A stretch of 62,750 nt of DNA, filler included, from Reclinomonas americana ATCC 50394 (lineage: Eukaryota): the NCBI GenBank assembly GCA_048213135.1. It is 4 parts of 2 records of this genome, joined end to end, with 100 filler letters (N's around TTAATTAATTAA, not from the genome) between each part and the next. Parts side by side here need not be neighbours in the genome. Positions count along the whole stretch, not along the records: positions 10,407 to 37,680 come from PS015059.1; 3 more parts are not named here. One strand, 5' to 3'. The notes beneath the pieces are model-generated. The model searched no databases. It had not been told where the DNA came from and worked only from the letters and a program-made list of their open reading frames with translations. The position numbers and the translations under genes are program-made. This document shows positions 10,407-42,098 of this stretch, one piece after another; the first letter of the stretch is position 1; the number at the start of each line of letters is the position of its first letter.

Positions 10407-11393
10407 AGAGAGAGAGAGATTCAGCAAGGGACAGAAAGGGACGAACGGAATTACATGCATCCTGCAGAGCTGGGATGAAAATGTCCGCGGCGTGCATGCA
10501 CAATGGGAAGCAGAGTGGTGTGCAAAACAAGACGCGTCGAAACAAATATCGGTGATTCGCTCTCCTGAGGCACATACATGAAAGATGCACGCACAACAGA
10601 CACCACAAAGAGACAGAACAGACTCCCAGGTGATTCATCGAGCTTGCACACAAAATGGAGGTGAGAAAGAGGCAAGCATGCAGAGGGAGACGTGCTTCAC
10701 TACCGCACACTGTCATTCACATGACAGGGCAACAAACACGGGAGAAGAATTCACCACCATCAACAACGACCTCACTCTCCTCCTCTGTCATCCTCTCTTC
10801 CCCACCTGCATCCCGCGTAATCACCTACTCTCCCTCGCAAGACACGAAAAACGACTCACAATCACCAGCAGCCACCGCTCTCCCTCCCTCCGACTCACCA
10901 ACTCAGCACCGGAAAAGGACGACCTCGGCATCCTCGACGATGAAACAGCGCAGAACCAGCTCGGGAAGACACCGCGAATCTTCTCTCTCCTGCATCTCCT
11001 GCACAGCATGCATGGCCGAGCGCGCGGCGTCGAGTTCGAGGCGAGCAAGGCCACGCGGCGTCGACCACACTCGTATCGTCTTGTCTTGGCCACCCGCGCT
11101 CACAATGTGGAGACCATCCGGAGAGACGGCCACAAACGACACCCATCCAGTGTGACCATTCAACCGTCGTACTTCCTCGCCACTCGCCAGAGACCACACC
11201 CGCACGGTGCTGTCTCCGCTCCCACTAATGATGTGCTGGCCATCGGGAGTAACAGCGACAGACGACACCCATGCAGTGTGTCCCTCCAGTCGGCGAACCT
11301 CTTCTCCACTTGCCAGTGACCACACTCTCACCGTGCTGTCCCCGCTCCCACTCATTAGTTTTGACCCGACGGTGAATGTGACAGGATGCAGCT

Positions 11394-11440
11394 CCTTGAC
11401 CCTTAACCCTTAACCCGGGGGCCCCTACCCTTGACCCTTG
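11394..11440. repeat. Telomere-like heptamer tract (CCCTT[A/G]A)n with a central GC-rich interruption
   Basis: CCTTGAC CCTTAAC CCTTAAC CCGGGGG CCCCTAC CCTTGAC CCTTG: 7-nt periodicity is maintained throughout. Confidence 0.7.
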
Positions 11441-11832
11441 TGGTATAGCCGAGCTGCTTCCGGTGCCAGTTGATGGCCTGCAAGTCCTTGTGGATTGAGT
11501 AGTACTTGATGTGGTTCCGGGCGCGGTACTTGACGTACACGGCCACGCATCGATCGATGTGTGCGTCGTCCCAACACGTGTCCACTGCAGCCTGATGCAA
11601 TGCAGGGTCGCGATCTGGGATGGACTCTGCAGAGGAGCGTGCGTCAGCACGGTGCAGCGTAGTGTGTGCAAGAGCAGTTCGTCTCACCAATGCAGCACGC
11701 ATGCTCTCGCAAGAACGCTGTAAACTGTTGCACGATGTAGCGGTAGTCTGACACGGTCTTCGGAGCAAGGTTGCCCACAGCACCAGCCTCCACAATCTCG
11801 TGATCCAGGTCGCGGAACAGCTCGCTCTCCAT
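11403..11832 (-). CDS. Truncated tyrosine recombinase, N-terminal SAM-like/core-binding domain only (122 aa, one intron 11687-11627)
   Basis: Exon 11832-11688 and exon 11626-11403 join in phase across GTGAGA...gctgac...ctctgcAG. Motifs NLAPKTVSDYRYIVQQFTAFLREH and VAVYVKYRARNHIKYYSIHKDLQAINWHRKQLGY match the helical pattern of Cre/integrase N-terminal domains. No catalytic R-H-R-Y region is present. Confidence 0.65.
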
Positions 11833-12226
11833 CGTGCGTCAAAAAGGAACTGCGGAGCGAATGGAAGCACGGTCAGTTGATGCTCTTTCGGAGCTGGCGT
11901 GCGCCGTGGCGCACGCCAATAGAAGAGCGTGCAGCCACAGTTCACTGTGCGCGCGCACACACATTCCTTCCATATACACACTAGTATCTACACAGTTCTA
12001 CCTAACATTACTAGATACAATGTGCTGGCCGTCGGGAGTGATGTCGACAGACCACACCTTGTCAGTGTGTCCTTCCAACCGTCGCACTTCTTCGCCACTC
12101 GCCAGTGACCACACACGTACCGACCCGTCGAAGCCGCCGCTCACGATGCGCTGACCGTCGGGAGTGACGGCGACAGAGAGCACCGCCTGCGTGTGACCCC
12201 GCAAGATCTGTGTCGACCATGGGTAC

Positions 12227-12263
<37 letters not shown>

Positions 12264-14677
12264 GCAACAGCCACAAATACGAATCCTTCGCACGTGTGTG
12301 TGAGCGCACCTTGGTTGTCATTGGAATCAGGAAGGATAATGTCACTTGTGCCCTCTCTTGTAGGTTCGCTTCTGCTAACTTCCTTTCTTCGAAGAGCAAG
12401 CCACCTGGTCGTTACTCTCCTGCGGTGGTCACGAAGAGTCTGTTCTTATCTCCTCGTGTGTGTGTGTGTGATTTGCTCGCTCGCTAGCGGGATTGTCACT
12501 GTTTCCCGCCTTTCTTCTCCCGCCTTGCTCCGAGACGTCGTTCATCCCTCGCCAGGCTGTAGCCAGCACCTCACGCATCATGCGGTAGTGTGAGAGCAAT
12601 GCGGCTCCGATGATGCGTGCGGGCTTTCGAAGACCGACATGTGACTCGTCGATGAGAAATCGGCAGAATGGACAAGCAGGGTGGCGACACAAGGTGGCGC
12701 TCCACTGCACCGTACGTGTCCAGCGACACTCTCTTTCTACTGCCCTGCATTCTCTCTCAACAAGGACTGGCATGTCGGGCTGCTTGGATACGCAGCTGTG
12801 GCCCTGGTGTGCTGATGCCACGGCACACCAGAGAATCCGATGAACACCGAGTCTTCGAAACCTCACGCCTCCTTGGATCGGCCCACAGCGAAGCTGACGA
12901 GGTGCACGTCATGATGGTACGACGAAGAACGAGAGCCACACGGAACAGGAGAGGAGAGACCAGTACAGTAGCACGTGCACAGCGATGGAAGAGACAGTCG
13001 TGTCGTGAGGCTCGCCTCCTCTCACCCAACTCACAATCAATGCTTCGTCCCTTCAATCACACTCACAGTCGGTCGGTGCATTGTCTCATGCACGCACTGT
13101 GTAGCACGGAACCACGTGTCTTCGCATGCCAGCGACGAGTCACTTGCCAGCACGCCTGTGCTCAGATTACACACAGCACTGAGTCAGTCAATCTCCAAGT
13201 CCCGCCAACTTGCTCCTCAACACAGATGCAGAACGCGTACGCACCAGGCCACGCGCGCGTGTGCAGTCTCCCATGGCCATCACCATCATTACTTGGCGGC
13301 GACAGCAGCAACCAAGAAGCGCACATCATCGATCCGCTCTGACTTGCCAACCGGGATCGAGAACGATCCACCGACCAGGCCACCCATCGGGAAATACGAC
13401 ACGCATGTGTCCACCCATGAGTAGATTGCCGAGCACGCGTCTGCAGTCTTCCATGACCACCAGCATCATCACTCGACAGAGACGGCGGCAACCAAGGTGC
13501 GCACATCATCGATCCGCTTCGACTTGCCAGCCGGGATTGAAAACGATCCACCGACCAGGCCATCCATCGCACATCACGACACGCATGTGTACATCCACCC
13601 AGCCACGTTCTGCATGACGTGCACGGCCTGCATGAATGAAGTGAGTGGATGGGAAGGAGGAAAGAGAGATCACGAAGAACAGGGCCACACAACTGCTGAG
13701 TGCATGGTGGGATGCGAGTGGGGAGCCGAGTGAGTGAGGTGACAGCCGGCAGTGGGCGATGCACAGCACGCCTGCAATCATTACGGAACAACGAGGCGGA
13801 CCTGCCCCTAAGGTCTCTGCATGCCGGTGTGCTGTGAGGAAAGAATGGAGGACGGGGAGAGATATCTCAATGACGAACACGCCGATCAGCATCTGATACC
13901 AACACGCGTTTGGGCAAGAGGCAAGGCGAGGGACGGTTCTGCACACACATCCATCCCGGCAAGGGAGAGAGAGAGCAGAGTCAGTATGCAGGTATGCCAC
14001 CTCACACACTTCGGTATCGGGAAGCTCACCGTGATGGACTGGCAATCGATGGCAGTCGGAACACGGTGAGCGGACCAGCAGCTCGGCCTTGAGCGTGTGC
14101 GGCAACGAGGGGTGGATGGCTGGGGAATCAGATGAGCGCACAAAGGCAGGGAGATGGCGGAGAAAGAGATAGACTCTGCAGGAGGCAGGAAAAGAGAGCT
14201 GAAAGACAGGCATTCTTCAGAGCCGGAAGGAGAATGTGCACGGCGCACAGGCACAATGAGAGGAAGAAAAATGGCACCAAGAAGGTGTACAAAACAAGAA
14301 GCGAGGAAACAATCATCGTTGACTCGCTCTCCTGGGGCACGTACATGGGCGACGAAAGATGCACACACAACAGACATCACAAAGAGACAAACAGATGCAA
14401 CAGGCTCCCAAGTGATTCATCGCACTTGCACACAAAATTAAGGTGAGGAAAAGGCACGCACACAGGGAGACATGCTTCACCCCGCACACTCACATTCACA
14501 TGACAGGACAACACACACGATAGAACAATTCATCATCAACAACGACCTCTCTCTCCTCCTCCGTCATCCTCTCTTCCCCCATCTGCACCATGCACAACCA
14601 CCCATTCTCCCGCGCAGGTCACGAAAAAACAATTCACAATCACCAGCAGCCACCTTCCCTCCCTTCGACTCACCGCC

Positions 14678-15830
14678 TCAGCACCGGAAAAGGACGACCT
14701 CGGCATCTTCGACGATGAAACAGCGCAGAACCAGCTCGGGAAGGCATCGTGAATCTACTTCCTCCTGCATCTCCTGCACAGCTCGCATGGCCGAGCGCGC
14801 GGCGTCGAGTTCGAGACGAGCAAGGCCACGCGGTGTGGACCACACTCGCACAGTATTGTCTTGACCACCGGCACTCACAATGTGCAGACCATCGGGAGAG
14901 ACAGCCACGCACGACACCCATCCAGTGTGACCAACAAACCGTCGCACTTCCTCGCCACTCGCCAGAGACCACACCCGAATGGAGCTGTCCCCGCTCCCAC
15001 TCACGATATGTTGGCCGTCGGGAGTGACGGCGACACAATACACCCATGAAGTGTGTCCCTCCAACCGTCGCACTTGGTCTCCACTCGCCAGTGACCATAC
15101 TCGCAGGGTGCGGTCCCCACTCCCACTAAAAATGTGCTGACCATCAGGAGGGACGGAGACAGAGTATACCCATCCAGTGTGTTTCTCCAACCGTCGCACT
15201 TCTACCCCACTCGCCAGCAACCACACTCGCACGGTATGATCTCCAGCCCCACTCACAATGTGCTCACTATCAGGGGTGACAGCGACTGACCACACATATC
15301 CAGTGTGTCCCTCCAGCCGTCGTACCTCGTCCCCACTCGCCAGAGACCACACTCTCACTGTGGTGTCCCAGCTCCCACTCACGATGTGCTGTCCATTGGG
15401 GGTGACGGCGACAGACCACACCTTATCATCGTGTCCCTCCAACCGTCTCACCTCCTCGCCACTCTCCAGCGACCACACACGCACGGTACAGTCTCCACAC
15501 CCACTCACTATCTGCTGGCCATCTGGGGTGACGGCGACAGACCACACCGGACCAGTGTCTCTCTCCAGTCGTCGCACTTCTTCTCCGCTCGCCAGAGACC
15601 ACATTCGAACGGTGCTGTCCATGCATCCACCAACAATGTGTTTGCCATCGGGAGTGACTGTGACCGATCGCACCGAAGAAGCGAGACCCTGAATGATCCG
15701 TCATCATTCGTGGTGAGACGCACTTGCACATAAACACAAAGAACAACAACCTACACAAGCACAAGCACACGAATGCATGCACAGACACCAAACACGCAAA
15801 GTGCGCATACATTCACACCTTGGTTGTCAT
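14678..15830 (-). CDS. WD40-tail family copy 2, 7 WD40 repeats plus conserved tail
   Basis: Exon 1 15830-15819 (MTTK), exon 2 15688-14678 (GLASSVRSVTVTPDG...) in frame. 42-aa GH...VW repeats. Confidence 0.92.
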
Positions 15831-17881
15831 TCTCCGTGTGTGTGTGCGTTACGTGTGTGTGTGTGTGAGTTGCTCGCTCGGGATTGTCACCGTTTCCCGC
15901 CTTGCTCCGAGACGTCGTTCATCCCTCGCCAGGCTGTAGCCAGCACCTCACGCATCATGCGGTAGTGTGAGAGCAATGCGGCTCCGATGATGCGTGTGGG
16001 CTTTTGAAGACCGTGGGACTCGTCGATGCGAAATCGGCAGAATGGACATGCAAGTGGTGGTGGTGACACGAGGTTGGCGCTCCATTGCATCGAGACCGGC
16101 CAGCATTCTCTGTCAACGAGGACAGGAATGTCGGGCTGCTTGGATACGCAGCTGTGGCCCTGTTGTGCTGATGCCACGGCACACCCGAGAATCCATGGAG
16201 CACCGAGTCATCGAAACCTCTCACCTCCTTGGATCGGCCCACAGCGAAGCTGACGAGGTGCACGTCATGATGGTACGACGAAGAAGGAGAGTCACAGGGA
16301 ACAGGAGAGGAGCGACCAGTACAGCAGCTCAGCGATGGACGAGGCAGCTGTGTCGTGAGACTCGCCTCCTCTCACCCAAGTCACAATCAATGCCTCGTGC
16401 GCGCGTGCCTTCAATCACACTCACAGTCTGTCGGTGAATCGTCTCGCGCATGCACTGTGAGGCATGGAACCACGTGTCATCGAATGCCAGTCACTTGCCA
16501 GCACGCCTGTGTTACGATCACCACACAGAACTGCGTCAGTAAATCTTCAAGTCTCACCAACTTGTTCCTCAACGCAGAAGCAGTACACGTACGCACCATG
16601 TGTTACTAGCCTCGCACGTGTCTGCAGTCTCCAACGGCCACCACCATTGTCACTCGGCAGTGTGAGCAGCAACCAACGTGCGCGCATAATCGATCCGCTC
16701 CGACTTGCCAGCCGGGATTGAAAACGATCAACCGACCAGGCCACCCATCGCACATACGCATCACGATACGCATGTGTACATCCTCCCAGCCACGTTCTCC
16801 ATGATACGCACGGCCTGCATGGATGAGGTGAGTGGGAGGGAAGGAGGAGAGAGAGATCACGAAGAACAAGGCCACACACCTGCATCGTGCTTGGTGGGAT
16901 GCGAGTGGGGAGCCGACTGAGTGAGGTGACAGCCGGTAGCGGGCGATGCACAGCACGCCTGCAATCATCACGGAACAACAACGAGGAGCACGTGTTTTCG
17001 AGGTGCCTGCATATAGGTGCACTGTGAGCAAAAGGAAAAGAGGAAGGAGAGAGAAATCTGCTCTGTCTCAACGACGAACACACCGATCAGCATCTGGTAT
17101 CAACACGCGTTTGGGCAAGAGGCAAGGCGAGGGATGCTTCTTCACATACATCCATCCTACGAGAGAGAGAAGGAGCAGAGTCAGTATGCAGGTATGCTNN
17201 NNNNNNNNNNNNNNNNNNACCTCACACACTTCGGCATCGGGAAGCTCACCGTGATGGACTGGCAGGATGGCAATCGGAACACGGTGAGCGGACCAGCATG
17301 CTCGGCCTTGAGCGAATGCGGGAAAGAAGGGTGGATTACTGGAGAAGCAGATGAGCGCACAAAGGAGAAAGACGGCGGAGTACGAGAGAGTGAGAGACTC
17401 TATAGGGGCAGAAAGGGAGGAACGGAATGACATGCATTCGTCAGGGCGGAAGGAGAATGTCCACGGCGCACATGCACGATCGGACACAAGTAGTGGAGCG
17501 AAGAAAGTGCGCAAAACGAGACGCGAGGAAACAAATATCGGTGATTCGCTCTCCCGAGGCACATACACGAACGACGGAAGAAGCACGCACAACAGATATC
17601 ACAAAGAGACAAAAAGACACAACAGGCTACCAAGTGATTAATCGCTCGCACACACACATTGAGGTGAGAATGAGACACGCCTACAGAGGGAGGCATGCTT
17701 CACGCCCGCACAATCACATTCACATGAAAGGGCAACAAACACAGAGAACAATTCTTCATCAACGACCTCTCTCTCTTCCTCTGTCGTCCTCTCTTCCCCC
17801 ACCCACTCTCCCTCGCAAGGCACGAAAAAACAACTCACAATCACCAGCGGCCACCGCTCTCCCTCTCTCCGACTCACCAAC

Positions 17882-19037
17882 TCAGCATCGGAAAAGGACG
17901 ACCTCGGCACCCTCGACGATAATGCAGCGCAGAACCAGCTCGGGAAGGCATCGTGAATTTTCCTTATCCTCTTGCATCTCCTGCACGGCGTGCATGGCCA
18001 AGCACGCGGCGTCGAGTTCAAAGCGAGCAAGGCCACGCGGCGTGGACCACACTCGCACCGTCTTGTCTTTGCCACCCGCGCTCACAATGTGCTGACCATC
18101 CGGAGAGACAGCCACAGACGATACCCATCCGTCATGTCCCACCAACCATCGCTCGTCCTCGCCACTCGCCAAAGACCATACCCGCACGGTGCTGTCTCCG
18201 CTCCCGCTAACAATGTGCTGACCGTTGGGAGAGACCGCCACAGACGTCACCGCACCAATGTGTCCCTCCAACCGTCGCACTTCCTCCCCACTTGCCAGCG
18301 ACCACACCCGCATGGTGCGGTCCTCGCTCCCACTTACGATGTGCTGACCATCGGGAGTGACAGCGACTGACCACACAAATCCAGTGTGTCCTTCCAACCG
18401 TCGCACCTCTTTGCCATTTGTCAGCGACCACACACGCACGGTATGATCTCCACCGCCGCTAACAATGTGGTGACCATCGGGGGTGACGGCGACTGACCAC
18501 ACCTTATCGATGTGCACCTTCAGTCGTCGCGTCTCTTGCCCACTTGACACCCGAATTGTGTTATCCCCACTACCACTCACGATATTCAGACCATCGGAGG
18601 TGACGGCGACAGACATCACCGCATTGGTGTGTCCACTCAATCGTCGAACCTCCTTGCCACTCACCAACGACCACACCCGCACCGTCTGGTCTGCACACCC
18701 ACTCACAACGTACCGCCCGTCGAGAGTGACAGCGACAGTGTACACCACATCAGTGTGTCCCACCAGCCGTCGCACCTCTGTGCTACTCGCCAGAGACCAC
18801 ACTCGGATGGTGCTGTCCTCACACCCACCGACAATGTGCTTGCCATCGGGAGTGACGGCGACGGACCTCACCGCAGTCGCGAGACTCTGAATGATCTGCG
18901 TCGATCATTCGCGGTGAGACGCACACACACAAACATGTACACACAAACAGCAACCGCACACGATGCACGAGCACACGAATGCATGCACAGACACCAACCA
19001 CGCAAAAGTGCGCATACATTCACACCTTGGTTGTCAT
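17882..19037 (-). CDS. WD40-tail family copy 3, 7 repeats (the third has a small in-frame deletion)
   Basis: Exon 1 19037-19026 (MTTK), exon 2 18886-17882 (SLATAVRSVAV...). Repeat 3 reads DNTIRV-SSGQE. Confidence 0.9.
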
Positions 19038-21227
19038 TCTCCGTGCGCGTGTGTGTGTGTGATTTGCTCGCTCGGGATTGTCACTGTTTCCCGCCTTTCT
19101 TCTCCCGCCTTGCTCTGAGACGCCGTTCATCCCTCGCCAGGCTGCAGCCAGCACCCCGCACAGCATGCGATAGTGTGGCTTTGTTGATGCTTGTGGGCTT
19201 TTGAAGACCGACATGGGACAGGTCGATGAGAAATCGGCAGAATAGACATGCAAGGTGGTGGTGGCTCGAGGTGGCGCTCCACTGCACCGTACATGTCCAG
19301 CGACACTCTCTTTCTACTGCCCTGCATTCTCTCTCAACGAGGACTGGCATGCCGTGCTGCTTGGATGTGCAGCTGTGGCCCTGCACCCGAGAATCCAATG
19401 AGCACCGAGTCAACGACACCTCATCTCCTTGGATCGGCCCACAGCGAGGTTGGTGAGGGCACGATGATGGCAAACGGTACAGGAGAGGAGCGACCAGCAC
19501 AGCAGCTCAGCGGTGGACGAGGCAGCTGCGTCGTGTGACTCGCCTCCCCTCACCCAAATCACAGTCAATGCATATGCCTCGTACATTCAATCACACTCAC
19601 AGTCGGTCGGTTGAATCGTCTCATGCAGGCACTGTGAAGCACGGAACCATGTGTCTTCGCATGCCAATCCCTTGCCAGGACGCCTGTGTTCAGATGACAC
19701 GCAGAATTGAGTCAGTAAATCTCAAGTCTCACCAACTTGCTCCTCAACGCACGTGTACAACACACACGCACCGTATGTTGCTGGCCTCGCACGTATCTGC
19801 AGTCCCCCGTGGCCACCACCATCATCACTCAACAGAGACGGCGGCAACCAAGAAGCGCACATCATCGATCCGCTCTGACTTGCCAACCGGGATCGAGAAC
19901 GATCCACCGACCAGGCCACCCATCGGGAAACACGTCACGCATGTGTCCACCCATGAGTAGATTGCCGAGCACGCGTCTGCAGTCTTCCATGACCACCAGC
20001 ATCATCACTCGACAGAGACGGCGGCAACCAAGGTGCGCACACCATCGATCCGCTCCGACTCGCCAGCCGGGATCGAAAATGATCCACCGACGTCGACCAG
20101 GCCACCATGTCGCACATCACGGCACGCAGGTGTACACCCACCCAGCCACGCTCTCCATGGCATGCGCAGTCTGCACGAATGAGGTGAGTGGGAGGGAAGG
20201 AGGAGAGAGAGATCAAGACGAACAAGGCCACAAAACTGCTGAGTGCATGGTGGGATGCGAGTGGGAGCCGAGTGAGTGAACAACGGGCGATGCACAGCAC
20301 GCCTGTCATTGTCATGGAACAACGACGAGGAGCACGTGTTTCCAAGGTGCCTGCAAATGGGTGCACTGTGAGCAAAAGGAATGGAGGAAGAGGAGCCCTT
20401 GTCTCGCTGACGAACACACCAATCAGCACATGATACCAACAAGTGGTTGGTCAAGAGGCAAGCCAAAGGTTGCTTCTGTACACACACATCCATCCTGCAA
20501 AGGAGAGGGAGAGAAGAATCAGCATGCAGTCAGGCAATCTCACACACTTCGGTGTCGGGATGCTCACCATGATGAACTGGCAGGATGGCAGTCGGTGCAA
20601 CATGAGCAGAGAAGCATGCTCGGCCTTGAGCGTGTGCGGCAAGGAGGGGTGGATGACTGGGGAAGCAGATAAGCGCACAAAGGAGGGAGACGGTGGGGAA
20701 AGAGAGAGAAACTCTGCAAGGGGCAGAGAAGGAGGGCTCGAGAGCTGAAAGACATGCATTCTTCAGAGCCGGAAAGAGAATGTCCGCGGCGCACAGGCAC
20801 CATGGGAAGCAGAGCAGTGATGCCAAGGAAGTGTGCAAAAGACGACGCGAGGGAATAATCATCGGCGACTCGCTCTCATGAGGCACACACACATGCACGA
20901 ATAAGATGCACGCACAACAGACATCACAACGAGACAAAAGAACACAACAGACTCCCAAGCGATTCATCGAGCTTGCACACAAAATGGAGGTGAGAAAGAG
21001 ACACGTAAACAGAGGGAGACGTGCTGCACTACCTCTCTCTCACTCACATGATAAGGCAACAAGCACAGAGAACAATTCTGCGTCATCAACAACGAACTCT
21101 CTCCTCTCCTCTGTCATCCTCTTCCCCCTCCTGCACCTCGCACAACCACCCACTCTCCCTCGCAAGACACGAAAAAACAACTCATATTCTCCAGCAGCCA
21201 CCTTCTCCCTCCCTTCGACTCACCTTC

Positions 21228-22515
21228 TCAGCACCGAAAAAGGACGACCTCGGCATCCTCGATGATGAAACAGCGCAGAACCAGCTCGGGAAGGCATCGT
21301 GAATCTACTTCTTCCTCCAGCATCTCCTGCACGGCGTGCATGGCCGAGCGCGCGGCGTCGAGTTCGAGACGAGCAAGGCCGCGTGGCGTGGACCACACTC
21401 GCACGGTCTTGTCCTTGCCACCCGCACTCACAATGTGCTGGCCATCAGGAGAGACGGCGACAGAATACACCCATCCAGTGTGTCCCTCCAGCCGTCGCAC
21501 TTCCTCGCCACTCTCCAGAGACCACATCCGCACGGTGCAGTCCCCGCTCCCGCTAAAACTGTACTGACCGTTGGGAGAGACCGCCACAGACGTCACCCAT
21601 TCAGTGTGTCCGTCCAGGCGTCGCACCTCCTCCCCACTCGCCAGAGACCACATCCGCACTGTGCAGTCCCAGCTCCCACTCACGATGTGATGACCCTCAG
21701 GAGTGATGGCGACAGACGTCACAGCGTCGGCGTGTCCCTCTAACCGTCGCACCTCTTCCCCACTCGCCAGCAACCACACCCGCACTGTGTTGTCTCCACC
21801 CCCACTCACAACGTGCTTACCATCGGGGGTGACTGCCACAGACCACACCGAAATAGTGTGTCCCTCTAACCGTCGCACCTCCTCGCCACTCTCCAGCGAC
21901 CACAGACACATTGTCTTGTCGAAGCCGCCGCTAACGACGTGCTGTCCATTGGGGGTGACGGCGACTGACCACACCTCCCGGGAGTGACCCATCAACCGTC
22001 GCACCTCCTCGCCACTCTCCAGCGACCACACACGCACGGTACAGTCTCCACCGCCACTGACAATAAGCTGACCATCAGGAGTGACGGCGACAGAGAACAC
22101 CCCGCCATCGATATCGTGTCCCTCCAGCCGTCGCACCTCCTTGCCACTCGCCAGAGACCACACACGTAGGGTGTTGTCTCCACCTCCACTCACGATGTGC
22201 TTGCCATTGGGAGTGACAGCGACAGATTGCACCCATGAAGTGTGTCCCTCCAGCCGTCGCACCTCTTCTCCACTTGCCAGAGACCACACTCGAACGGTAC
22301 TGTTCAAGCACCCACCGACAATGTGCTTGCCGTCGGGAGTGACAGCGACGGACCGCACTGCAGCGGGACTCTGAATGATCTGTGCCGATCATTCGCGGTG
22401 AGGCGCACATGCACAAACACAAAGAACAACAACCGCACACACGCACGAGCACACGAATGCATGCACAGACACCAACCACGCAAAAGTGCGCACACATTCA
22501 CACCTTGGTTGCCAT
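21228..22515 (-). CDS. WD40-tail family copy 4, 8 repeats
   Basis: Exon 1 22515-22504 (MATK), exon 2 22370-21228 (SPAAVRSVAV...), open frame. Confidence 0.92.
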
Positions 22516-24380
22516 TCTCCGTGAGTGTGCGTGTGTGTGCGTGTTTTGCTCGCAGCGGGATTGTCACCGTTTCCCGCCTTTCTTCTCTGCTTTGCTCCGA
22601 GACGTCCCGCATCCCTCGACAGGCTGCAGCCAGCACCCCATACAGCATGTAGTAGTGTGAGCGATGTCGCTTTGTTCATGCGTGTGGGCTTTTGAAGACC
22701 GACATGGGACTCGTCGATGAGAAATAGGCAGAATGGACAAGGGTGGTGGTGGTGACACGAGGTGAAGCTCCACTGAACCGCGCTGCTGTCCAGCGACACT
22801 CTCTTTCGACTGACCTGCATTATCTCTCAACGAGGACTGGCATGTCGGGCTGCTTGGATGTGCAGCTGATGCCACGGCATTTTCCCGAGAACCCATTGAG
22901 CGGCGAGTCTGCGAATCCTCAAGCCTCCTTGGATCGGCCCACAGCGAGGTTGATGATGGTACGACGAAGAAGGAGAGTCACAGGGGACAGGAGAGGAGCG
23001 ACCAGTACAGCAGCACAAACGATGGAACAGGCAGCTGCGTCATGAGACTCGCCTCCCCTTCACCCAAATCAAATTAAAGCCTCGTGCCTTCAATCACACT
23101 CACAGTCGGCCGGTGAATCGTCTCATGCAGGCACTGTGAAGCACGGAACCACGTGTCTTCGCATGCCAGTCACTTGCCAGCACGCCTGTGTTACGATCAC
23201 ACAAAGAATTCGAATTGAGTCAGTCAAATCTCGATGTCTCACCAACTTGCTCGTCAACGCAGGAGTAGAACACGCACGCACAAGTGTGTTGCTGGCCTCG
23301 CACGTGTCTGCAGTCTCCCATGACCACCACATGGTCACTCGGCAGTGACAGCAGCAACCAAGGTGCGCACACCATCGATCCGCGCAGACCTGCCAGTCGG
23401 GATTGAAAGACGATCCACCGACCAGACCACCATGTCGCACATCACGACACGCATGCGTACACCCACTAATCCGCGCTCTCCATAGCATGTGCGGCCTGCA
23501 CGAATGAGGTGAGTGGGAGGGAAGGAGGAAAGAGAGATCAAGACGAACAGGGTCACACAACTGCTGAGTGCATGGTGGGATGCGAGTGGGGAGCCGAGTG
23601 AGTGAGGTGACAGCCGGCAACAGGCGATGCACAACACGCCTGCAATCATTACGGAACAACGAGGGGGACCTGCCCCTAAGGTGTCTGCATGTCGGTACGC
23701 TGTGAGCGAAAGAAATGAGGAAGGAGAGAGATATCTGCTCTGTCTCGCTGACAAACACACCGATCAGCACCTGATGCCAACACGCGTTTGGTCAAGAGGC
23801 AAGCCGAGGGAAGCTTCTGCACACACAACCATCCTTCAATAGGGGGAGAGCGGAGTCAGTATGCAGGTATGCCACCTCACACACTTCGGCATCGGGAAGC
23901 TCACTATGATGGACTGGCCAACTCGACGGCAGAATGGCAGTCGGAAAACGGTGAGCAGACCAGCATGCTCGGCCTCGAGCTTGTGCGGCAAGGAGGGGTG
24001 GATGGCTGGGGAAGCAGATAAGCGCACAAAGGCAGGGAGATGGCGGAGAAAGAGATAGACTCTGCAGGAGGCAGGAAAAAGAGAGCTGAAAGACAGGCAT
24101 CCTGCAGAGACGGAAGGAGAATGTCCACGGCGCACGTGCACACCGGGAAGCAGAGTATGGCGGTGCCAAGGAGGTGCGAAAAACAAGACGCGAGGGGAAA
24201 AGACAATGGTGACTCGCTCTCATGAGGCACGTATATCAGCGACGAAAGATGCACGCACAACAGACATCACAACGAGACAGAAAGACACAACAGACATCCA
24301 AGCAATCCATCTCGCTTGCACACACAAAATGGAGGTGAGAAAGAGGCACGCCTACAGAGGGAGACGTGCTTCACGACCTC

Positions 24381-25742
24381 TCACTCACATTCACATGAAA
24401 GGGGAACAAGCACGGGAGAACAGTTCTGCATCATCCACGTCGACTTCTCTCCTCTCGTCAGTCGTCCTCTCTTCCCCCACCTCCATCCCGCATGATTACC
24501 CGCACCCCCGCGCAAGACACGAAAAAACAACTCACAATCACCAGCAGCCACCTTCTCTCCCTTCCGACTCACCAACTCAGCACCAAAAAGGACGACCTCG
24601 GCATCTTCGACGATGAAACAGCGCAGAACCAGCTCGGGAAGGCATCGTGAATCTACTTCCACCTCGACTGCCCTCCTCTCCTCCTGCATCTCCTGCACAG
24701 CCTGCATGGCCGAGCGCGCGGTGTCGAGTTCGAGATGAGCAAGGCCACGCGGCGTGGACCACACTCGCACGGTCTCGTCGTAGCCACCCAGACTCACAAT
24801 GTGCTGACCATTGGGAGAGACGGCCACAGACGACACCCGTCCAGCGTGTCCCTCCAACCGTCGCACCTCCTCCCCACTCTCCAGAGACCACACCCGAATG
24901 GTCATGTCTCCGCTCCCGCAAACAATACGCCGACCATCTGGAGTGACGGCCACAGACCACACCGCACCATTGTGTCCGTCCAACCGTCGCACTTGGTCTC
25001 CACTCATCAGTGACCACACTCTCGCCGTGTTGTCCCAACTGCCACTCACGACGTGTTGACCATCGGGGGTGACGGTGACAGAGTATACCCGTCCAGTGTG
25101 TCCTTCCAGCCGTCGCACCTCCTCCCCACTCGCCAGCAACCGTACCCGCACGGTATGATCTTCACCCCCACTTACAATGTACTGACTATCAGGGGTGACG
25201 GCGACAGACCAAATCTCGTCAGTATGCCCCTCCAGCCGTCGTACCTCCTCCCCACTCGCCAGAGACCACACCCGAATTGTGCAGTCCCAGCTCCCACTCA
25301 CGATGTGATGACCATCTGGAGTAACAGCGACAGACCACACCTTAACATCGTGTCCCTCCAGCCGTCGTACCTCCTCGCCACTCTCCAGCGACCACACACG
25401 CACGGTACAGTCTCCACCGCCACTCACGATGTGCTGATAATCAGGAGTGACGGCGACAGAGAACACCCCGCCATCGTGTCCCTCCAGCCGTCGCACCTCC
25501 TTGCCACTCGCCAGAGACCACACTCGAATCGTGTTGTCCATGCATCCACCAACAATGTGGTTGCCATCGGGAGTGACGGCAATGGACCTCACCACATCGA
25601 GACTCTGAATGATCTGTGTAGATCACCCGCGATGAGGTATACACACACACAAACGACAACCACACACATGCACAAGCACACCAATGAACACACAGACACC
25701 AAACACGCAAAAGTGCGCACAACTTCACACCTTGGTTGTCAT
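24381..25742 (-). CDS. WD40-tail family copy 5, 7 repeats; a 1-nt deletion just before the stop gives a read-through C-terminal extension
   Basis: Exon 1 25742-25731 (MTTK), exon 2 from 25604. Plus-strand caccaaaaaggac versus caccggaaaaggac in copies 1 and 2 changes LFRC* to LFGAELV... Confidence 0.87.
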
Positions 25743-27793
25743 TCTCCGTGCGTGCGTGTGCGTTTGTGTGTGATTGTGCTCGCTCGGAATTGTCACCGTT
25801 TCCCGCCTTTCTTCTCCCGCCTTGCTCCGAGACGTCGTCCATCCCTCGCCAGGCTACAGCCAGTACCCCACACAGCATGCGGTAGTGTGTGAACGATGTG
25901 ACTCCCATGATGCGTGTGAGCTTTCGAAGACCGACGTCGACATGGGACTTGTCGATGGGAAATCGGCAAAATGGACAAGGGTGGTGGCTCGAGGTGGCGC
26001 TCCACTGCACCGTGCTGCTGTCCAGCGACACTCTCTTTCCACTGACCTGCATTCTCTCTCAACGAGGACTGGACTGTCGGGCTGATTGCATGTGCAGCTG
26101 TGGCCCTGTTGTGCAGATGCCACCGCAGAGCACACTTGAGAATCCAATGAGCACAGGAGTCATCGAAATGCCTCACACCTCGTTGAATCGGCCCACAGAG
26201 AGCTTGATGAGGGCACCATGATGGTACAAGGAAGAAAGAGAGCCACAAGGGACGGGAGAGGAGCGACCAGCACAGTAGCAAAGCGATGGACGAGGCAGCT
26301 GTGTCGCGAGGCTCGCCTCCCCTCACCCAATCACAATCTATGCCTCGCGCCTTCAATCACACTCACATTCGGTCGGTGAATCGTGTCACGCAGGTACTGT
26401 GAGGCACGGAACCACGTGTCTTCGCATGCCAGTCACTTGCCAGCACGCCTGTGTTCATGGCACACACCGAACTGAGTCAGTCAATCTCCAAGTCTCACCA
26501 ACTTACTCCTCAACGCAAATGCAGAACACGTACGCACCAGGCCACGCGCGCGTCTGCAGTCTCCCATGGCCATCACCATCATTACTTGGCGGCGACAGCA
26601 GCAACCAAGGAGCGCACATAATCGATTCGCTCCGACTTGCCAGCCGGGATCGAAAACGATTCACCGACCAGGCCATCCATCGCACAGCACGGAACGCAGG
26701 TGTACACCCACCCAGCCACGCACCTCATAGCGTGCACGGCCTGCACGAACGAATTGAGTGGGAGAAAGAGGAAAGAAAGATCACGCCGAACATGGTCACG
26801 CACCTGCATCGTGCATTGGTTGGATTCAGGTGTGGAGCCGACTGAGTGAGGTGACAGCCGGCAGCGGGCGATGCACAGCACGCCTGTCATTACCACGACA
26901 TGCTTTCCATGGTCTCTGCATGCCAGTGTGCGATGTGAGCGAAGAATGGAGGACGTGGAGAGAGATATCTGCTCTGTCTCACGTGACGAACACACCAATC
27001 AGCACCTGATACCAACACACGGGATTGGACAAGTGGCAAGCCAAGGGACGCTCACACAACCATCCTGCAAGGGGCAAGGGAGAGAAGGAGCAGAGAGTCA
27101 GTATGCAGGTATGCCACCTCACACACTTCGACATCGACNNNNNNNNNNNNNNNNNNNNTGCCAGTTCTAACTCGACACGCCATGAGCGTCAACTCACTCC
27201 GAGTCACGCATGTGAGTCGGGTGGAGAGGCAACAACACACGATCCACAAAGAGAGCAACGAGGCATCGCAGTTCGTGAGTGGGGTGCGCCACGCCAGTTG
27301 TCAGGGCACACACACACATGCGGGAAACGAGTGCGCAGGGCAAGTGCACTCCCTCCCTCCTCGTGGCGTGTGTGGCGAGAAGGGCGGCCTACTGAATCGA
27401 TGCTTGACGCGCTCTCCATGTTCATGCGGTGCCAAAGTGAGAATGGGAGGCGGGTAATGATTGCCACTTGCCGCTGCTTCAACGCCGCGTTCGAATGACA
27501 GGGCGACATGAAGGCACAAGCACAAGGCGTGTGTTTGGGTGGGAGAGCGAGGACTCGCTCAATGCCAAGCAACACGCGTGTGCCTGTTCATTCCATGGCC
27601 TCACCTCAACCACCTCTCGCACACCTCGCACTCGGGATTCTCTTCTTGCAATCCCACTGCACTGCACTGTGCTGTATCTGCTTTCCGGCTCCCTCCACTT
27701 GGCAAGGCAGTGGAGAAGCACGTGTGAGGCGGTGTGGCGGTCAACAGGAGAGAGTTGCACACAGACAGATCGGTCTTCGTACATTCATTGAGC

Positions 27794-28082
27794 TCACTCC
27801 GTCCAACACCATCCAGGCGCACGGCGTTCAATCACCTCTGCATCCTCCAATACAAAACACCGCAGCACAACATCGACGAGGATCCAGTCACGATCATCTT
27901 CGTCGACGAGCAGCTCGTTGACAGCCAGCACGGCTGAGCGTGCGGCCGCAACCTCTTGCCCCGCCAGCCCACGCGGAGTGGACCACACACGGATCGATTT
28001 ATCCGCACTGCCACTCACGACGAGCTGGCCATCGGGAGTAACGACGACAGAGTATACCCATCCAGTGTGTTCCCTCCAACCG
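27794..28082 (-). pseudogene. Divergent WD40-tail relic: last WD repeat plus tail only
   Basis: HTGWVYSVVVTPDGQLVVSGSADKSIRVWSTPRGLAGQEVAAARSAVLAVNELLVDEDDRDWILVDVVLRCFVLEDAEVI. A 1-nt frameshift lies in the RLEG-H codons and upstream repeats are absent. Confidence 0.75.
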
Positions 28083-28499
28083 TCCAACACTGCGCAACAG
28101 GAACAAAGGCAAGAAAGAAGAACCAATCAGATGAGAGAGTGGGTTGTGAAGCAAGAGGACAGACATCGACGAACGGGATGGAATGAGGAGAATGAGAGAG
28201 GAGTAGCGTGCTGCAATTACGTGGGTGCAAAAGGAAGAGAAGAGAGGGTAGGCACAAATCGGAGTGGGGAGGAAGAGGAGAGCAAGCGAGGAACGCGGCA
28301 CAGCGACGAGCAAGCATCCCTCAATCGACACGAAGCAGAACAATGTGAGACAAGAAGAAAGAGAGAGTGGGCGCACGGAGGCACGAACAGTGCAAGTGCA
28401 TGACATGAAGGGAGGAGAAAAAGGGCGGATCTTGAGGAGCGGACGATGGAGAGGAGGGAGGCATTGAAAGGGAAGCCATTGAAGAGCGATCAGCTGACA

Positions 28500-29630
28500 C
28501 AGGAGAGAACAGAACAAGGTGAAAAGAGCGACAGTGGATGGAGGCGTGAAGGATGCAAGTGAAAAGAGATCACGAAAGGAGAAAGTGACCGACAGGGAAG
28601 TCCTTGAAGCACAGAGAGGTGAGGAGAAGGAGAGTGAGAAGAGACGAGAACGATGCAAGTGAAAAGAGATCAACGAAAAGCAACAAGGGCGGCTCACGGG
28701 AAGGGGACAATGGAGAGGAGAGAGGCCAAGAAAGGAAGGCAATGGAAGACACAAGAAAGAGCGAAACGAGACGAGACGAGATGAGGTGAAGGAGAAAGAG
28801 AGTGGGAGGAGTCGTGAAGGGTGCAAGTGAAAAAAGATCAAGGAAAGGCAACAAGGGCAGCTCACGGGAAGGGGACAATGGAGAGGAGAGAGGCCAAGAA
28901 AGGAAGGCAATAGAAGACACAAGGAAGAGCGAGACGAGACGAGACGAGGTGAGGAGAAGGAGAGTGGACAGAGTCGTGAAGGATGCAAGTGAAAAAAGAT
29001 CAAGGAAGGAGAAAGGGACCGAAAAAAGGGAAGTCCTTGAAGCACAGAGAGGTGAGGAGAAGGAGAGTGGATGAAGGCGTGAAGGGTGCAAGTGAAAACA
29101 GACCAAGGAAGGAGAAAGGGACCGAAAGGGAAGTCCTTGAAGCACAGAGAGGTGAGGAGAAAGGGAGTGGAAGGAAGCGTGAATTCGAAGGATGCAAGTG
29201 AAAAGAGATCAACGAAAAGCAACAAGGGCGGCGCACGGGAAGGGGACAATGCAGAAGAGAGAGACCAAGAAAGGAAGGCAATAGAAGACACAAGAAAGAG
29301 CAAAACGAGACGAGACGAGGTGAGGAGAGTGAGAGTGGGAGGAGGCGTGAAGGATACAAGTGAAAAGAGATCAAGGAAAGAGAAAGGGACCGAAAAGGGA
29401 AGTCCTTGAAGCACAGAGAGGTGAGGAGAGTGAGAGAGGATGGAGGCGCGAAGGATGCAAGTGAAAAGAGATCAACGAAAACAACAAGGGCGGCTCACGG
29501 GAAGGGGACAATGGAGAGGAGAGAGGCCAAGAAAGGAAGGCAACAGAAGACACAAGGAGGAGCGAGACGAGACGAGACGAGGTGAGGAAAAGGAGAGTGG
29601 GAGGAGGCGGGACAGATGCAAGTGAATGTG
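28500..29630. repeat. GA-rich complex minisatellite
   Basis: Recurrent ggatgcaagtgaaaagagatcaa, gggaagtccttgaagcacagagaggtgagg and cacgggaaggggacaatggagaggagagaggccaagaaagg blocks. Confidence 0.9.
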
Positions 29631-30659
29631 ACCAATGCGAGTGCATAATGGAGATGAGGAAGAACGAGAGACAAAAGAAACGTGAATCGCTCACCTGCTC
29701 AGCGAGTGAGACACAAGAACACAGTCAGCGTAGCGTGTACTCGCTCCGCGTCATGGGTGCCACAATAAGGCGGGCAAGGAGAGATCTGAATGTGATGCTG
29801 GAGCGCGGCATTGCGAGGCACATGCACACTTCTCGTCGCCACGGCGCTCCGTCTCGCACAACAAGATGGACAGATGGTGCATGGCAGGCCTCACTCCCCT
29901 GCGACATGCGAGCGCATCTATGAGCAAAGAAAAAGCAGAGCGGCCGACACTCGTGTTGCACCACCACAAGCACACACCGATCGACAGAAAATGTGTGTGG
30001 GCATATTCGAGCAGTCAAGGGACACAGCGGCAAGTGACAGGATGCCGCCCAGCAGCACCTGCTGCAGTAGAGCATGTGGACCAGGCGAGTCGAAATGCGT
30101 CCCACATCTGTCGCAGAAGTGGCATCATGCGTGTCAGTGCATGACCATGCTTGTCGCCCTCCCTTCAACCTCAAATCGCAAACGATCCTCTTCTCTCTCC
30201 ACTCCTCTCACCGCTCCCGTCAACTCACCCCGCACGTGTGTATCGTCGAACGCCACCAGCATCACCAGTTGCTGTGGGGGAGTGCGTGACGGTCGATCAA
30301 CGCAGAGCCACCAACAGGAAGAACAAGATGCGCCACATTGCGAATCCGGCGGTGGCCGACGACTGGCTCACACGAGCTCCCATTGATATCACGCCGGCTG
30401 ACAAGCGACGGTCGAATGGCACCGCTCTCACACAATCATCGCCTGCAGGCGGAGAGCGCGATAAAGTAAGTGTGGGCGCAGAATTGGGCGAAGAAGGAGG
30501 GCGTAGAGAGTGAATCGGTGAATCTGAAGGGAGAGGGAGACAGAAGAAGGCAACGGTGGCATGGCGGACAAGGGGGAGAGGGGGGAGAGGGGTACAGAGA
30601 CAGGCAAAGTACAGGCAAGAGGAGGGTGACGACGGAAGCGGAGAGGGAAGATGCGAAGG

Positions 30660-31400
30660 CAGGGAAAGGGAAAGAGAAGGAAGAGGCAGAGACAACAGAG
30701 CGATGATTCAACGAGGGAGAGGACGGAAGGGAAAGGGAAGACGCGAAAGAAGAGAAGAAAGCAGAAAGTAGAAGAGAAGGAAGAGGCAGAGACAACAACA
30801 GAGCAATGATTCAACGAGAGTGAAGACGGAAGGGAAAGAAAAGACGCGAAGAAAGAGAAAGCAGAAGAGAAGGAAGAGGCAGAGACAACAACAGAGCGAT
30901 GATTCAACGAGGGTCAAAAGGTGGGGAAAGGGAAGACGCGACGGAAGAGAGAGCGAAAGAGAAGGAAGAGGCAGAGACAACAACAGAGCAATGATTCAAC
31001 GAGGGTGAAGACAGAAGGGAAGGGAAGAGGCGAAGGAGGAGAAAGCAGAAAGCAAAGAGAAGGAAGAGGCAGAGACAACAACAGAGCGATGATTCAACGA
31101 GGATGAAGTCGGAAGGGAAAGAGAAGACGCGAAGGAAGGGAAAGGGAAAGAGAATGAAGAGGCAGAGACAACAACAGAGCAATGATTCAACGTAGGTGAA
31201 AAAGGAAGGGAAAGGGAAGACGCGAAGAAAGAGAAAGCAGAAGAGAAGGGAGAGGCAGAGAAAACAACAGTGCAATGATTCAACGAGGGAGAAGACAGAG
31301 GGAGAGGGAAGACGCGAAGGAAGGGAAAGCGGAAGAGGGGGGCGGAGGGGGAAGAGAGAATGAAGAGGAAGAGATAACAGTGCAATGATTCAACGAGGGT
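30660..31400. repeat. GA-rich tandem repeat, ~85-100 bp unit
   Basis: About 8 copies of gaggcagagacaacaacagagc(a/g)atgattcaacgaggg...gaagacgcgaa. Confidence 0.9.
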
Positions 31401-38294: not shown

Positions 38295-40870
38295 TTTCTC
38301 TTTCATCAAGAAAGAGAAGAAAGAAGACCAGTCTCTCTGTCTCTCATCAAGAAAGAGAAGAGAGAAAATCAGTTTCTATCTCTTCGAATTCTCTCATCAA
38401 GAAAGAGAAGAAAGAAATCACACTCTCTCTCATTCATCAAGAAAGAGAAGAAAGAAGATCAGTCTCTCTCTCACTCATCAAGAAAGAGGAGAAAGGAAAT
38501 CAGTCTCTCTCTCTCACTCATCGAGAAAGAGAAGAAAGATAATCAGTCTCTCTCTCGCTCATCAAGAAAGAGAAGAAGTCTCTCTCCTCTCTCATCAAGA
38601 AAGAGAAGAAAGAAAATCAGACTCTCTCTCACTCACCAAGGAAGAGAAGAAAGAAATTCAGTCTCTCTCCCTCTCTCATCAAGAAAGAGAAGAAAGAAAT
38701 CAGTCTCTCTCTTACTCATCAAGAAAGAGAAGAAAGTTTCTCACCCTCTCAAAGAAAGCCCATGAGAGATGAAAGAAAAGAAAAAGAAGAATCGAGTCAG
38801 GAACCAGAGAGGAGAAGAGAAGAGATGAATCATTCTCCATCTGTGAGAGAGAGTGAGTGAGAGAGAAAATGAAGAGAGAGAAAAGAAATGACCGCCTCTC
38901 TTTGAACCATCCTACAAAACAAATGATAGATCACCGTGGCAAATCAAAGGGCATTACTTTTCTGACCAGGGATGTGGGCATTCTGATGAGAGTGGGAGGG
39001 CTCTATTCACGAAACTCTCTCTGCTGAGCGCACTTCTCTCGCTCAACATGCCGGACGACCGCCTATTTCAACACATTCTGAGAAGGCAAAGAATGGACGA
39101 AGGGAGAGAGTTTATTTCATTCATTCATTCAGAGAGAGTTTCTTTCTTTCAGCAAGAGAGGGAGTTTCTTTCCTTTCTTTCACTGAGAGACAGTTTCTTT
39201 CTTTCTTTCTATCATTCATCAAGAGAGAAAGTTTCTTTCTTTCTTTCTTTGAGAGAGAGGAGTTCCTTTCATCTTTTCTTTCCTTCATCAAGAGAGGGAG
39301 TTTCTTTCTTTCTTTTCTTTCTTTGAGAGTGAGCTTCTTTCAGCAAGAGAGGGAGTTTCTTTCTTTCCTTTCTTTCTTTCATCAAGAGTGAGAGTTTCTT
39401 TTTCTTTCTCTCATCAAGAGAGAGAGTTTGCTTGTTTCTTTCTTTTCTTTCTTTGAGAGACGGAGAGTTTCTTTCTTTCATTGAGAGAGTTTCTTTCTTT
39501 GGTAGACAGAATTTCTTTCTTTTCTTGCATTGAGAGATAGAGTTTCTTCCTCTCTCGCTAGTTACCGATTGGTATACTTAGGTTTCCAGAGTGAGAAACG
39601 ACCAGGAGCCACTTCAATGTCCTTTCAGTTGTCCTGTTCGTTTTCACTNNNNNNNNNNNNNNNNNNNNNNNNNNNNNNNNNNNNNNNNNNNNNNNNNNNN
39701 NNNNNNNNNNNNNNNNNNNNNNNNNNNNNNNNNNNNNNNNNNNNNNNNNNNNNNNNNNNNNNNNNNNNNNNNNNNNNNNNNNNNNNNNNNNNNNNNNNNN
39801 NNNNNNNNNNNNNNNNNNNNNNNNNNNNNNNNNNNNNNNNNNNNNNNNNNNNNNNNNNNNNNNNNNNNNNNNNNNNNNNNNNNNNNNNNNNNNNNNNNNN
39901 NNNNNNNNNNNNNNNNNNNNNNNNNNNNNNNNNNNNNNNNNNNNNNNNNNNNNNNNNNNNNNNNNNNNNNNNNNNNNNNNNNNNNNNNNNNNNNNNNNNN
40001 NNNNNNNNNNNNNNNNNNNNNNNNNNNNNNNNNNNNNNNNNNNNNNNNNNNNNNNNNNNNNNNNNNNNNNNNNNNNNNNNNNNNNNNNNNNNNNNNNNNN
40101 NNNNNNNNNNNNNNNNNNNNNNNNNNNNNNNNNNNNNNNNNNNNNNNNNNNNNNNNNNNNNNNNNNNNNNNNNNNNNNNNNNNNNNNNNNNNNNNNNNNN
40201 NNNNNNNNNNNNNNNNNNNNNNNNNNNNNNNNNNNNNNNNNNNNNNNNNNNNNNNNNNNNNNNNNNNNNNNNNNNNNNNNNNNNNNNNNNNNNNNNNNNN
40301 NNNNNNNNNNNNNNNNNNNNNNNNNNNNGAGAGAGTGGTGAAGGGAAAGGGAGGGAGCGAAACGACCTCCCTTTCTTTTCATTTCTTTCTTTCAGAGAGA
40401 GAGAGAGTTCCTTTCTTTTCTTTCATTGAGAGAGAGTTTCTTTCTTTTCTTTCTTTCTTCGAGAGAGTTTCCTTCCTTTCTTTCCTTGAGAGAGAGTCTC
40501 ATTCTTTCTTTCATAGGATGTGATTTCCTTTCCTTTCTTTCACAGAGAGAGAGTGTCTCTTTCTTTCTTTCTTTCATTCATCAAGAGAGAGTTTCCTTCA
40601 TTCTTGCTGAGAGCGAGAGTTTCTTTCTTTTCCTTCTTTCATCGAGAGAGAGTTTTGAAGGGAGAGGGAGGGAGTTTTCTTTCAGCAAGAGAGAGAGAGA
40701 GTTTCTTTCTTTCTTTCTTTCATTCCGAGAGAGAGTTTCTTTCTTTCTTTTCTTTCATGCAGAGAGAGACTGAATTTTTCCTTTCTTTCATGAAGAGAGA
40801 GAGTTTCTTTCTTTCTCTTTCTTTCCAGTGAGAGAGAGTTTCTTTCTTTCTTTCTTTCTTTGAGAGAGAG
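38295..40870. repeat. AT-richer low-complexity minisatellites (tcatcaagaaagagaagaaagaaatcagtctctct; tcatcaagagagagagtttctttct)
   Basis: ~40 bp units at 38300-38760; related CT-rich units at 39110-39540 and 40390-40870, spanning a gap. Confidence 0.85.
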
Positions 40871-41716: not shown

Positions 41717-41868
41717 TCTCCTCTTCCCTCCCTCTTCCCTCTTCCCTCTTCCCTCTCCCTCTTCCCTCTTCCCTCTTCCCTCTTCCCTCTTCCCTCTTCC
41801 CTCTTCCCTCTTCCCTCTTCCCTCTTCCCTCTTCCCTCTTCCCTCTTCCCTCTTCCCTCTTCCCTCTC
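41717..41868. repeat. (CTTCCCT)n heptamer satellite
   Basis: About 20 near-perfect copies. Confidence 0.95.
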
Positions 41869-42098
41869 CTTTTCCCTCCCTCCCCCCATCAATTATCATC
41901 GCAAAACAACGTTACACTTCTTCATCATGGGAAGTCGGCAAAAATTGCACACAGACGCACAACCCCACCCCCACAAGAAGAGGAGGGGTAAAACGCCTGC
42001 ACGCAACAAGCAGCAAAACAGCAAACACACAAAGGAAAAACACCAAAACGGGAAAACAAAGTCTACCCCCACCACTCTCCACTCTCTCACACACATTA

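Follow-up and report, generated by a model that had tools for sequence, protein, structure and literature searches.

The window analysed here, a 62.75-kb stretch of Reclinomonas americana ATCC 50394 DNA taken as a whole, is the scope of every count given below as being in the window. As it contains 15 runs of N totalling 3615 N, it represents a scaffolded, gapped draft. Many microsatellites and minisatellites, together with spliceosomal-type intron signals, give it eukaryote-type traits, and Pfam-recognisable ORFs are almost absent from it. WD40-repeat paralogues are arranged as a tandem array with a unit of ~3.3 kb: the minus strand carries five units from 10.4 to 27.1 kb, with a remnant near 28.0 kb, and three genes are found on the plus strand at 45.1–50.2 kb. 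The units are ~78–84% identical across their non-repeat parts, and the WD40 domain is composed of 126-bp repeats. An intact paralogue matches the Pfam WD40 model with an E-value of 4.6e-79, and a protein search with the WD40 paralogues returned closest matches that were just 50–59% identical.

Unit 1 of this array carries a 663-bp insertion (positions 11,355–12,017, or equally 11,354–12,016, minus strand) located within the GTG (Val) codon of an HIVSG motif. The upstream part of the interrupted WD40 exon (12,018–12,207, minus strand), preceded by a putative CACAG 3' splice site at 12,208–12,209, ends with ...TPDGQHI(V), and the downstream part (10,903–11,354, minus strand) resumes with (V)SGSGDSTVRVW... 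and runs to a stop codon at 10,903–10,905. On the sense (minus) strand, the junctions read CACATTG/TATCTAG...AACTAA/TGAGTGG. Alignments of unit 1 with every other unit break at 11,352–11,357 and restart at 12,016–12,017. The 17-nt WD40 family consensus at the insertion site is CAGCACATTGTGAGTGG; scripted removal of 11,355–12,017 or of 11,354–12,016 gave 0/17 mismatches to this consensus and restored QHIVSGSG, and shifting the removal by one further base either way introduced 1 mismatch. The sole overlap between the start of the insert and the base that follows its end is a single T, hence the one-base ambiguity of the borders. No base of the target was lost and none was duplicated, and no run of N lies within the insert or adjoins it. 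The insertion is therefore real and precisely delimited. A sequence-only reading of this DNA had described a precise 663-bp insertion in the HIV/S codons of copy 1 with no target duplication, and the removal and alignment data bear it out in its extent, in its placement and in the absence of a target duplication.

When the WD40 frame is read through the insert, a stop codon is reached after 6 codons (...QHIVSSNVR, then stop), and the insert-bearing paralogue is thus most likely knocked out and likely a pseudogene, in the company of ~eight intact paralogues nearby. The WD40 reading frame is otherwise intact on either side of the insert, so that the insertion is perhaps recent, or the copy still partly used. 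Unit 1 is also ~three 126-bp repeats short of its neighbours, with an open WD40 frame of 639 nt once the insert is removed versus 1020 nt in the neighbouring units; the repeats were lost in register, and a link between their loss and the insertion cannot be drawn. Uninterrupted matches to CAGCACATTGTGAGTGG with at most 3 mismatches occur 40 times in the window, versus 0.38 expected by chance, and the occupied sites are therefore 1 of 41. As the remaining 40 sites of the window carry no insertion, the earlier, speculative suggestion that a recombinase targets the conserved WD40 repeat finds no support here.

Like the host WD40 gene, an ORF contained in the insert is read from the minus strand; 186 nt of insert lie upstream of its ATG. 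Exon 1 (11,688–11,832) starts with the ATG at 11,832–11,830, which has an A at −3 and a G at +4, and comprises 48 codons plus 1 nt. It is followed by a predicted spliceosomal intron of 61 nt in phase 1 (11,627–11,687, minus strand), which opens with GTGAGA, has a branch-like CTGAC motif located 18 nt from its 3' end, and closes with a pyrimidine run and CAG. Exon 2 with its stop codon (11,403–11,626, minus strand) comprises 73 full codons (11,626–11,406) and a TAA at 11,405–11,403, yielding a spliced ORF of 122 codons. The GC content by codon position in this ORF is 0.60/0.39/0.75. Ranked by GC3-GC2 skew against 17,350 random 366-nt window frames, the ORF lies in the top 0.46%, and 603 of 22,544 open 122-codon frames (2.7%) reach its value. 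Each exon taken separately lies in the top 1.5%, the coding-type skew being found in both exons in the frames given by the splice model. The two-exon, 122-aa ORF proposed earlier is thus upheld both by its intron signals and by its composition; judged on these sequence properties, the ORF with its predicted intron is probably a genuine coding sequence, or was one until recently. Its last ~12 residues come from a CCCTTRA tract and lie ~15 residues past the last predicted helix. Since the ORF runs into this 7-mer tract shortly after the last helix, the gene looks cut off after its N-terminal domain.

The sequence-only reading had likened the ORF product to a Cre/integrase core-binding domain. 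In a search of 24,736 Pfam families in which the exons were queried separately, the sole families matched by exon 1 were two integrase N-terminal SAM-like models: Phage_int_SAM_4 (PF13495; E 0.095, 13.6 bits for a cut-off of 27, residues 16–43 on profile positions 8–35) and Phage_int_SAM_1 (PF02899; E 0.1, 13.3 bits for a cut-off of 22.3, profile positions 13–36). Neither match reaches the Pfam gathering cut-off of its model. The matched segment, within residues 16–44 of exon 1, covers 24–28 residues of a SAM-like domain of ~85 positions, most of which is left unaligned. No Pfam family was matched by exon 2 at E ≤ 10. Given sub-threshold matches on exon 1 alone and an exon 2 that matches no family, the likeness to a Cre/integrase core-binding domain is not sustained by these searches.

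Other searches were in line with this result. No relative of exon 1 was recovered in a word-index protein search, a phmmer search of the PDB (E ≤ 10), NCBIfam, PHROGs or a tblastn search of phages; its match in a viral contig was discarded as a chance one, 14 residues long and located inside a phage ORF without integrase features. Exon 2 had no match in the PDB (phmmer, E ≤ 10) or in NCBIfam, matched one unknown family in PHROGs (E 0.1), and had no related loci in metagenome and viral contigs. An exhaustive phmmer search of exon 2 against 1.84 billion representative proteins returned four matches (E 1e-5 to 6e-4), which were rejected as spurious: all are multi-repeat proteins (LGFP, PPC, rhodanese, fn3) in which weak stretches are summed. 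The searched protein database held no proteins of this genome, and the missing relatives of the ORF are therefore uninformative on copies within the same genome.

We also built a profile HMM of the XerD N-terminal domain from the N-terminal 110 residues of 78 rows, comprising E. coli xerD and 77 of 80 fetched loci (the three loci left out have open frames shorter than 250 aa). The spliced peptide scored 6.7 bits against this profile, exon 1 scored 8.3 and exon 2 −0.8. The score of the spliced peptide was reached by 2 of 2000 composition shuffles, the alignment being confined to residues 21–44 (HMM positions 20–43). In separate AlphaFold models of the two exons, computed without an alignment, exon 1 folds confidently into a helical hairpin (pLDDT 92.9), and the exon 2 model has three helices (pLDDT 62.5). 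The five helices predicted across the two separately folded exons would be compatible with a helical core-binding domain. Foldseek searches of the PDB with both half-models gave no match at E ≤ 0.001, and no recombinase was present among the matches listed; this null result counts for little, because half-domains are poor queries. Taken together, these data indicate one helix pair that is more similar than expected by chance to the helix conserved in integrase core-binding domains; the remainder is shape-compatible, with no detectable similarity, and the result constitutes a lead and not an identification.

Outside the ORF, the insert displays several sequence features. A perfect 24-nt palindrome (two 11-nt arms and a 2-nt spacer) is located at 11,895–11,918, 63–86 nt upstream of the ATG. 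Its predicted fold (−14.3 kcal/mol, z −4.9) was equalled by 0 of 200 shuffles. The rest of the window shows no enrichment of the palindrome half-site, and a scan of viral contigs with the 24-mer gave 0 occurrences. At the other end of the insert, three TTGACCC heptamers (11,361–11,437, plus strand, starting at 11,361, 11,396 and 11,431) are spaced by exactly 35 bp; this heptamer occurs 6 times in the window, including these 3. The heptamers overlap a CCCTTAA/CCCTTGA 7-mer tract at 11,393–11,439, and the window contains 4 matches to the CCCTTAA/CCCTTGA motif, of which 3 are in the insert, for 0.29 expected by chance. A metagenome scan for the three spaced heptamers returned more than 116 loci. 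In the matches listed by local BLAST, these loci resemble the insert via (CCCTTAA/CCCTTGA)n arrays alone, and none of them shows similarity to the rest of the insert; the motif builds long 7-mer tandem arrays in environmental contigs (for example, positions 1180–1900 of locus L075). In the sense orientation, the 5' end of the insert (11,955–12,017, minus strand) is AT-rich, as noted previously: the GC content is 0.40 in 11,955–12,004 versus 0.50–0.66 in the other 50-nt bins. It holds a 7-bp inverted repeat (arms at 11,984–11,990 and 12,012–12,018, one arm taking in a host base). This is the short inverted repeat seen in the sequence-only reading; it proved to be at chance level, as its fold reaches just −2.3 kcal/mol (z = −0.67), which 51 of 200 shuffles match.

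We asked whether the insert can be assigned to the Cryptons, the eukaryotic tyrosine recombinase (YR) transposons which it had been proposed to resemble. As for Cryptons, no terminal inverted repeats (TIRs), long terminal repeats or staggered-cut target site duplication (TSD) were found at the insert; like the CryptonF/S/A/I elements, it resides in a eukaryote and has an intron-containing gene (the intron being predicted here), to which the weak hint of an integrase-type N-terminal domain may be added. It differs from them in that it encodes neither a YR catalytic domain nor a GCR1_C or conserved C-terminal region, the R-H-R-Y catalytic domain being absent from both exons in the Pfam search, and in that its ORF has no detectable relative. 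The termini differ as well. In two reports, Cryptons are described as having target-matching direct repeats of 4–6 bp at each of their termini, or a terminus nearly identical to the target (PMC3212892, PMC9977147), and the active CryptonF-1 of Chlamydomonas is described in the latter with the terminus CACCG and the target CAYCG (PMC9977147). The insert junctions have a single T in common and no 4–6-bp terminal direct repeats, and no terminus matches the target, so that the terminal signature of Cryptons is lacking; a TAATG pair at the 5' end of the insert is 8–10 nt out of register.

A non-autonomous copy needs no catalytic domain, and membership of the Cryptons would therefore rest on an autonomous partner. 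No second copy of the insert was found in the 62.75-kb window, at either the DNA or the protein level. A domain scan of 100 of the 145 window ORFs of at least 140 aa and of 12 further picks revealed no transposase, recombinase or reverse transcriptase (RT) domain, and hence no autonomous partner among the ORFs scanned. The other 45 ORFs lie in the insert and in the WD40 units at 10.5–27 kb and 45.3–48.5 kb, and the non-repeat parts of these WD40 units are paralogous to scanned parts of unit 1. From the proposal of a Crypton-like YR element, the lack of a TSD and the intron signals thus stand; the R-H-R-Y domain, the 4–6-bp terminal direct repeats and additional window copies are missing, and a Crypton or tyrosine recombinase identity of the insert is not established.

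Other known systems were also compared with the insert. Like it, the DIRS, Ngaro and VIPER elements show no TSD; they code for a YR whose N-terminal domain is helical, and short non-autonomous derivatives having just the element ends in common are known. Unlike these elements, the insert lacks RT and RNase H genes, terminal repeats of the inverted or split direct type and an internal complementary region, and a DIRS-like reading was rejected on the genes and terminal repeats; the retained intron would also argue for copying at the DNA level. Helitrons likewise generate no TSD, and the sense-strand insert can be read as ending with CTAA followed by T. However, a Helitron was rejected on three grounds: having both a 5' TC and a 3' CTRR would leave 2 extra nt in the restored target, the consensus is not interrupted between an A and a T, and a 3' subterminal hairpin is lacking. 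An intein was dismissed because of the stop codon met by the host frame, and a solo LTR was ruled out from the junction sequences.

The reading that we favour, albeit tentatively, is that the insert is a truncated or internally deleted copy of a mobile element, possibly of the YR type, that was inserted by conservative breakage and joining. The 663 bp would represent what remains of a mobile DNA element: its 5' end, its first one-and-a-part exons (1.x) and a 3' subterminal repeat region. The encoded part would comprise ~105 residues forming an N-terminal domain made entirely of helices, possibly a core-binding domain of the integrase type, whereas the catalytic part would have been lost to internal deletion or truncation, or to collapse in the assembly. 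Conservative breakage and joining would have placed the element in one WD40 repeat, at the GTG codon of its conserved HIVSG motif, with target bases neither gained nor lost, and the remnant would be unable to move by itself. Several observations count in favour of such a remnant: the insertion is exact, loss-free and duplication-free; the insert brings its own gene start, in sense with the host gene, and canonical signals of a 61-nt intron; both exons have a coding-type skew in the frames of the splice model; the only Pfam families matched, below their cut-offs, are two integrase N-terminal SAM-like models, joined by the shuffle result of the XerD HMM; the five predicted helices are compatible with a core-binding domain; the ORF ends at the 7-mer tract, as expected of a deletion or truncation junction; and the palindrome and the 35-bp-spaced heptamers are structured non-coding features. 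Against it count the lack of a second copy and of any transposase, recombinase or RT in the window, an integrase signal that is sub-threshold, limited to one helix pair and accompanied by an exon 2 without a Pfam, NCBIfam or PDB match, half-models without a recombinase among the Foldseek matches listed, and the lack of TIRs and of 4–6-bp terminal direct repeats, with 40 target sites left empty. A more specific version, in which the insert would be a non-autonomous copy from an as yet undescribed family of YR DNA elements that bear introns and, unlike described Cryptons, integrate without any terminal direct repeat, the palindrome being the recombinase core site and the heptamers accessory binding sites, appears decidedly improbable.

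Ranked second, and nearly as likely as a mobile-element remnant, is a capture event during break repair, a minority possibility in its own right: a double-strand break in the WD40 repeat would have been end-joined around a stray 663-bp fragment of genomic or extrachromosomal origin, comprising the 5' part of some gene and a bit of 7-mer satellite, with nothing having transposed by itself. The 1-nt microhomology (T) at the junctions and the lack of TSD, TIRs and terminal direct repeats are as in end-joining filler or captured DNA, as are a single copy in the window and the composite make-up of the insert, in which an AT-rich piece, the 5' part of a gene, a CCCTTRA satellite-like tract and a unique tail follow one another. 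The gene in the insert is incomplete, and the ~three 126-bp repeats missing from unit 1 would fit a history of breakage or recombination at the locus, although these repeats are missing in register and a link to the insertion is not required. End joining usually nibbles or adds bases, yet here the target is perfectly restored without any base lost, and an apparently complete gene 5' region with ordered repeats and other ordered features exceeds what a random fragment would be expected to carry. The state of the assembly offers another explanation, which we regard as improbable: a real but far longer element, or another locus, may have been collapsed or joined chimerically in a gapped draft, so that the deleted structure or the placement in unit 1 would be artefactual. 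The N content of the window, a locus made of tandem paralogues ~80% identical and built of 126-bp internal repeats, and an ORF that stops exactly at a short 7-mer tract, a potential collapse point, are all compatible with such an effect. However, no N is present inside or beside the insert, and the two junctions lie within a single codon, at positions that complement each other, and their joining restores the exact consensus. As two independent misjoins would hardly do so, an insertion in some WD40 repeat is almost certainly real.

Least probable, and very unlikely in our estimate, is that the WD40 gene recently acquired the insert as an intron, either introner-like or non-canonical, which would be removed from the mRNA. 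Like an introner, it is a discrete insertion of a few hundred bp within a coding exon and in sense orientation; its length of 663 is a multiple of 3, the WD40 frame is intact on either side of it, and a GT is present at a phase-0 position (CACATT/GTATCT). This GT has no partner at the 3' border, which reads ...AAAACTAA without an AG, and a canonical intron was rejected on this account: the borders offer no frame-restoring GT...AG pair, and no splice sites are supplied by a TSD. The one in-frame AG, near 11,393 (TCAAG/GAG), could act as a 3' site and would then lengthen the product by 13 residues, but it follows a purine-rich and not a pyrimidine tract. Moreover, the insert has its own ATG, ORF and predicted internal intron, there are no other copies in the window, and 0 of the 40 other sites bear such an intron. 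A mobile-element remnant thus ranks first, followed by capture of a fragment, an effect of the assembly and a new intron, in this order.

As it stands, the finding amounts to a single insertion that disrupts one gene out of a large array of WD40 paralogues, and its value for annotation lies in a likely pseudogene and an orphan ORF, which would not surprise a specialist. The YR transposons to which the Cryptons belong form a rare and poorly understood class, whose movement, and the rearrangements that it causes, have been seen just recently (PMC9977147). Should the insert turn out to be a YR element present in several copies, this class would gain a lineage and a new terminal architecture.

The window contains at least eight WD40-repeat paralogues arranged in tandem as units of ~3.3 kb, at 10407-28100 on the minus strand and 45100-50400 on the plus strand, with about seven 126-bp repeats per gene. 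Outside the repeats, the units share 78-84% identity with one another. In the protein database, the closest relatives of these paralogues are only 50-59% identical, and two matches come with an organism named in the source, one being a cyanobacterium and the other a fungus.

The WD40 exon of unit 1, which is split by the 663-bp insertion (12018-12207 and 10906-11354), is shorter than those of the neighbouring units by ~3 repeats (378 bp), the difference being in register. This deficit reflects either a contraction of the repeats or a collapse in the assembly. A segment (12208-12455) that is absent from the other units and includes (AG)19 and (GT)n runs separates this exon from the conserved upstream portion of unit 1. 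The sequence CACAG| at 12208-12209 resembles a 3' splice site, and the intron that it would close has a long CT tract. Upstream, an open frame on the minus strand (12432-12908) bears a CPFCRF motif. The conserved upstream part also comprises a 180-bp tandem duplication (13256-13597; 1.9 copies, 84% matches), which is likewise present in units 3 and 4.

Elsewhere in the window, two open frames on the minus strand, 42102-43244 and 51557-52528, gave weak Pfam matches to the SUEL-type lectin domain, both below threshold (E about 2e-4, 22 bits vs a cut-off of 31.4). Among the window ORFs scanned, these two matches and a KAAG1 match, dismissed as being at chance level, were the only non-WD40 Pfam signals. 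At 28533-31337, 38297-40870 and 41729-41878, adjoining N gaps, there are purine- or pyrimidine-rich minisatellites with strong strand asymmetry, whose periods are 93-376 and 29-117, as well as 22 copies of TCCCTCT.

Long tandem arrays of CCCTTAA/CCCTTGA 7-mers were observed in four environmental contigs recovered through the spaced TTGACCC heptamers of the insertion: L075 (positions 1180-1900), L038, L074 and L098. These arrays are a telomere-like satellite, and the short tract of the insertion consists of the same mixture of the two motifs.
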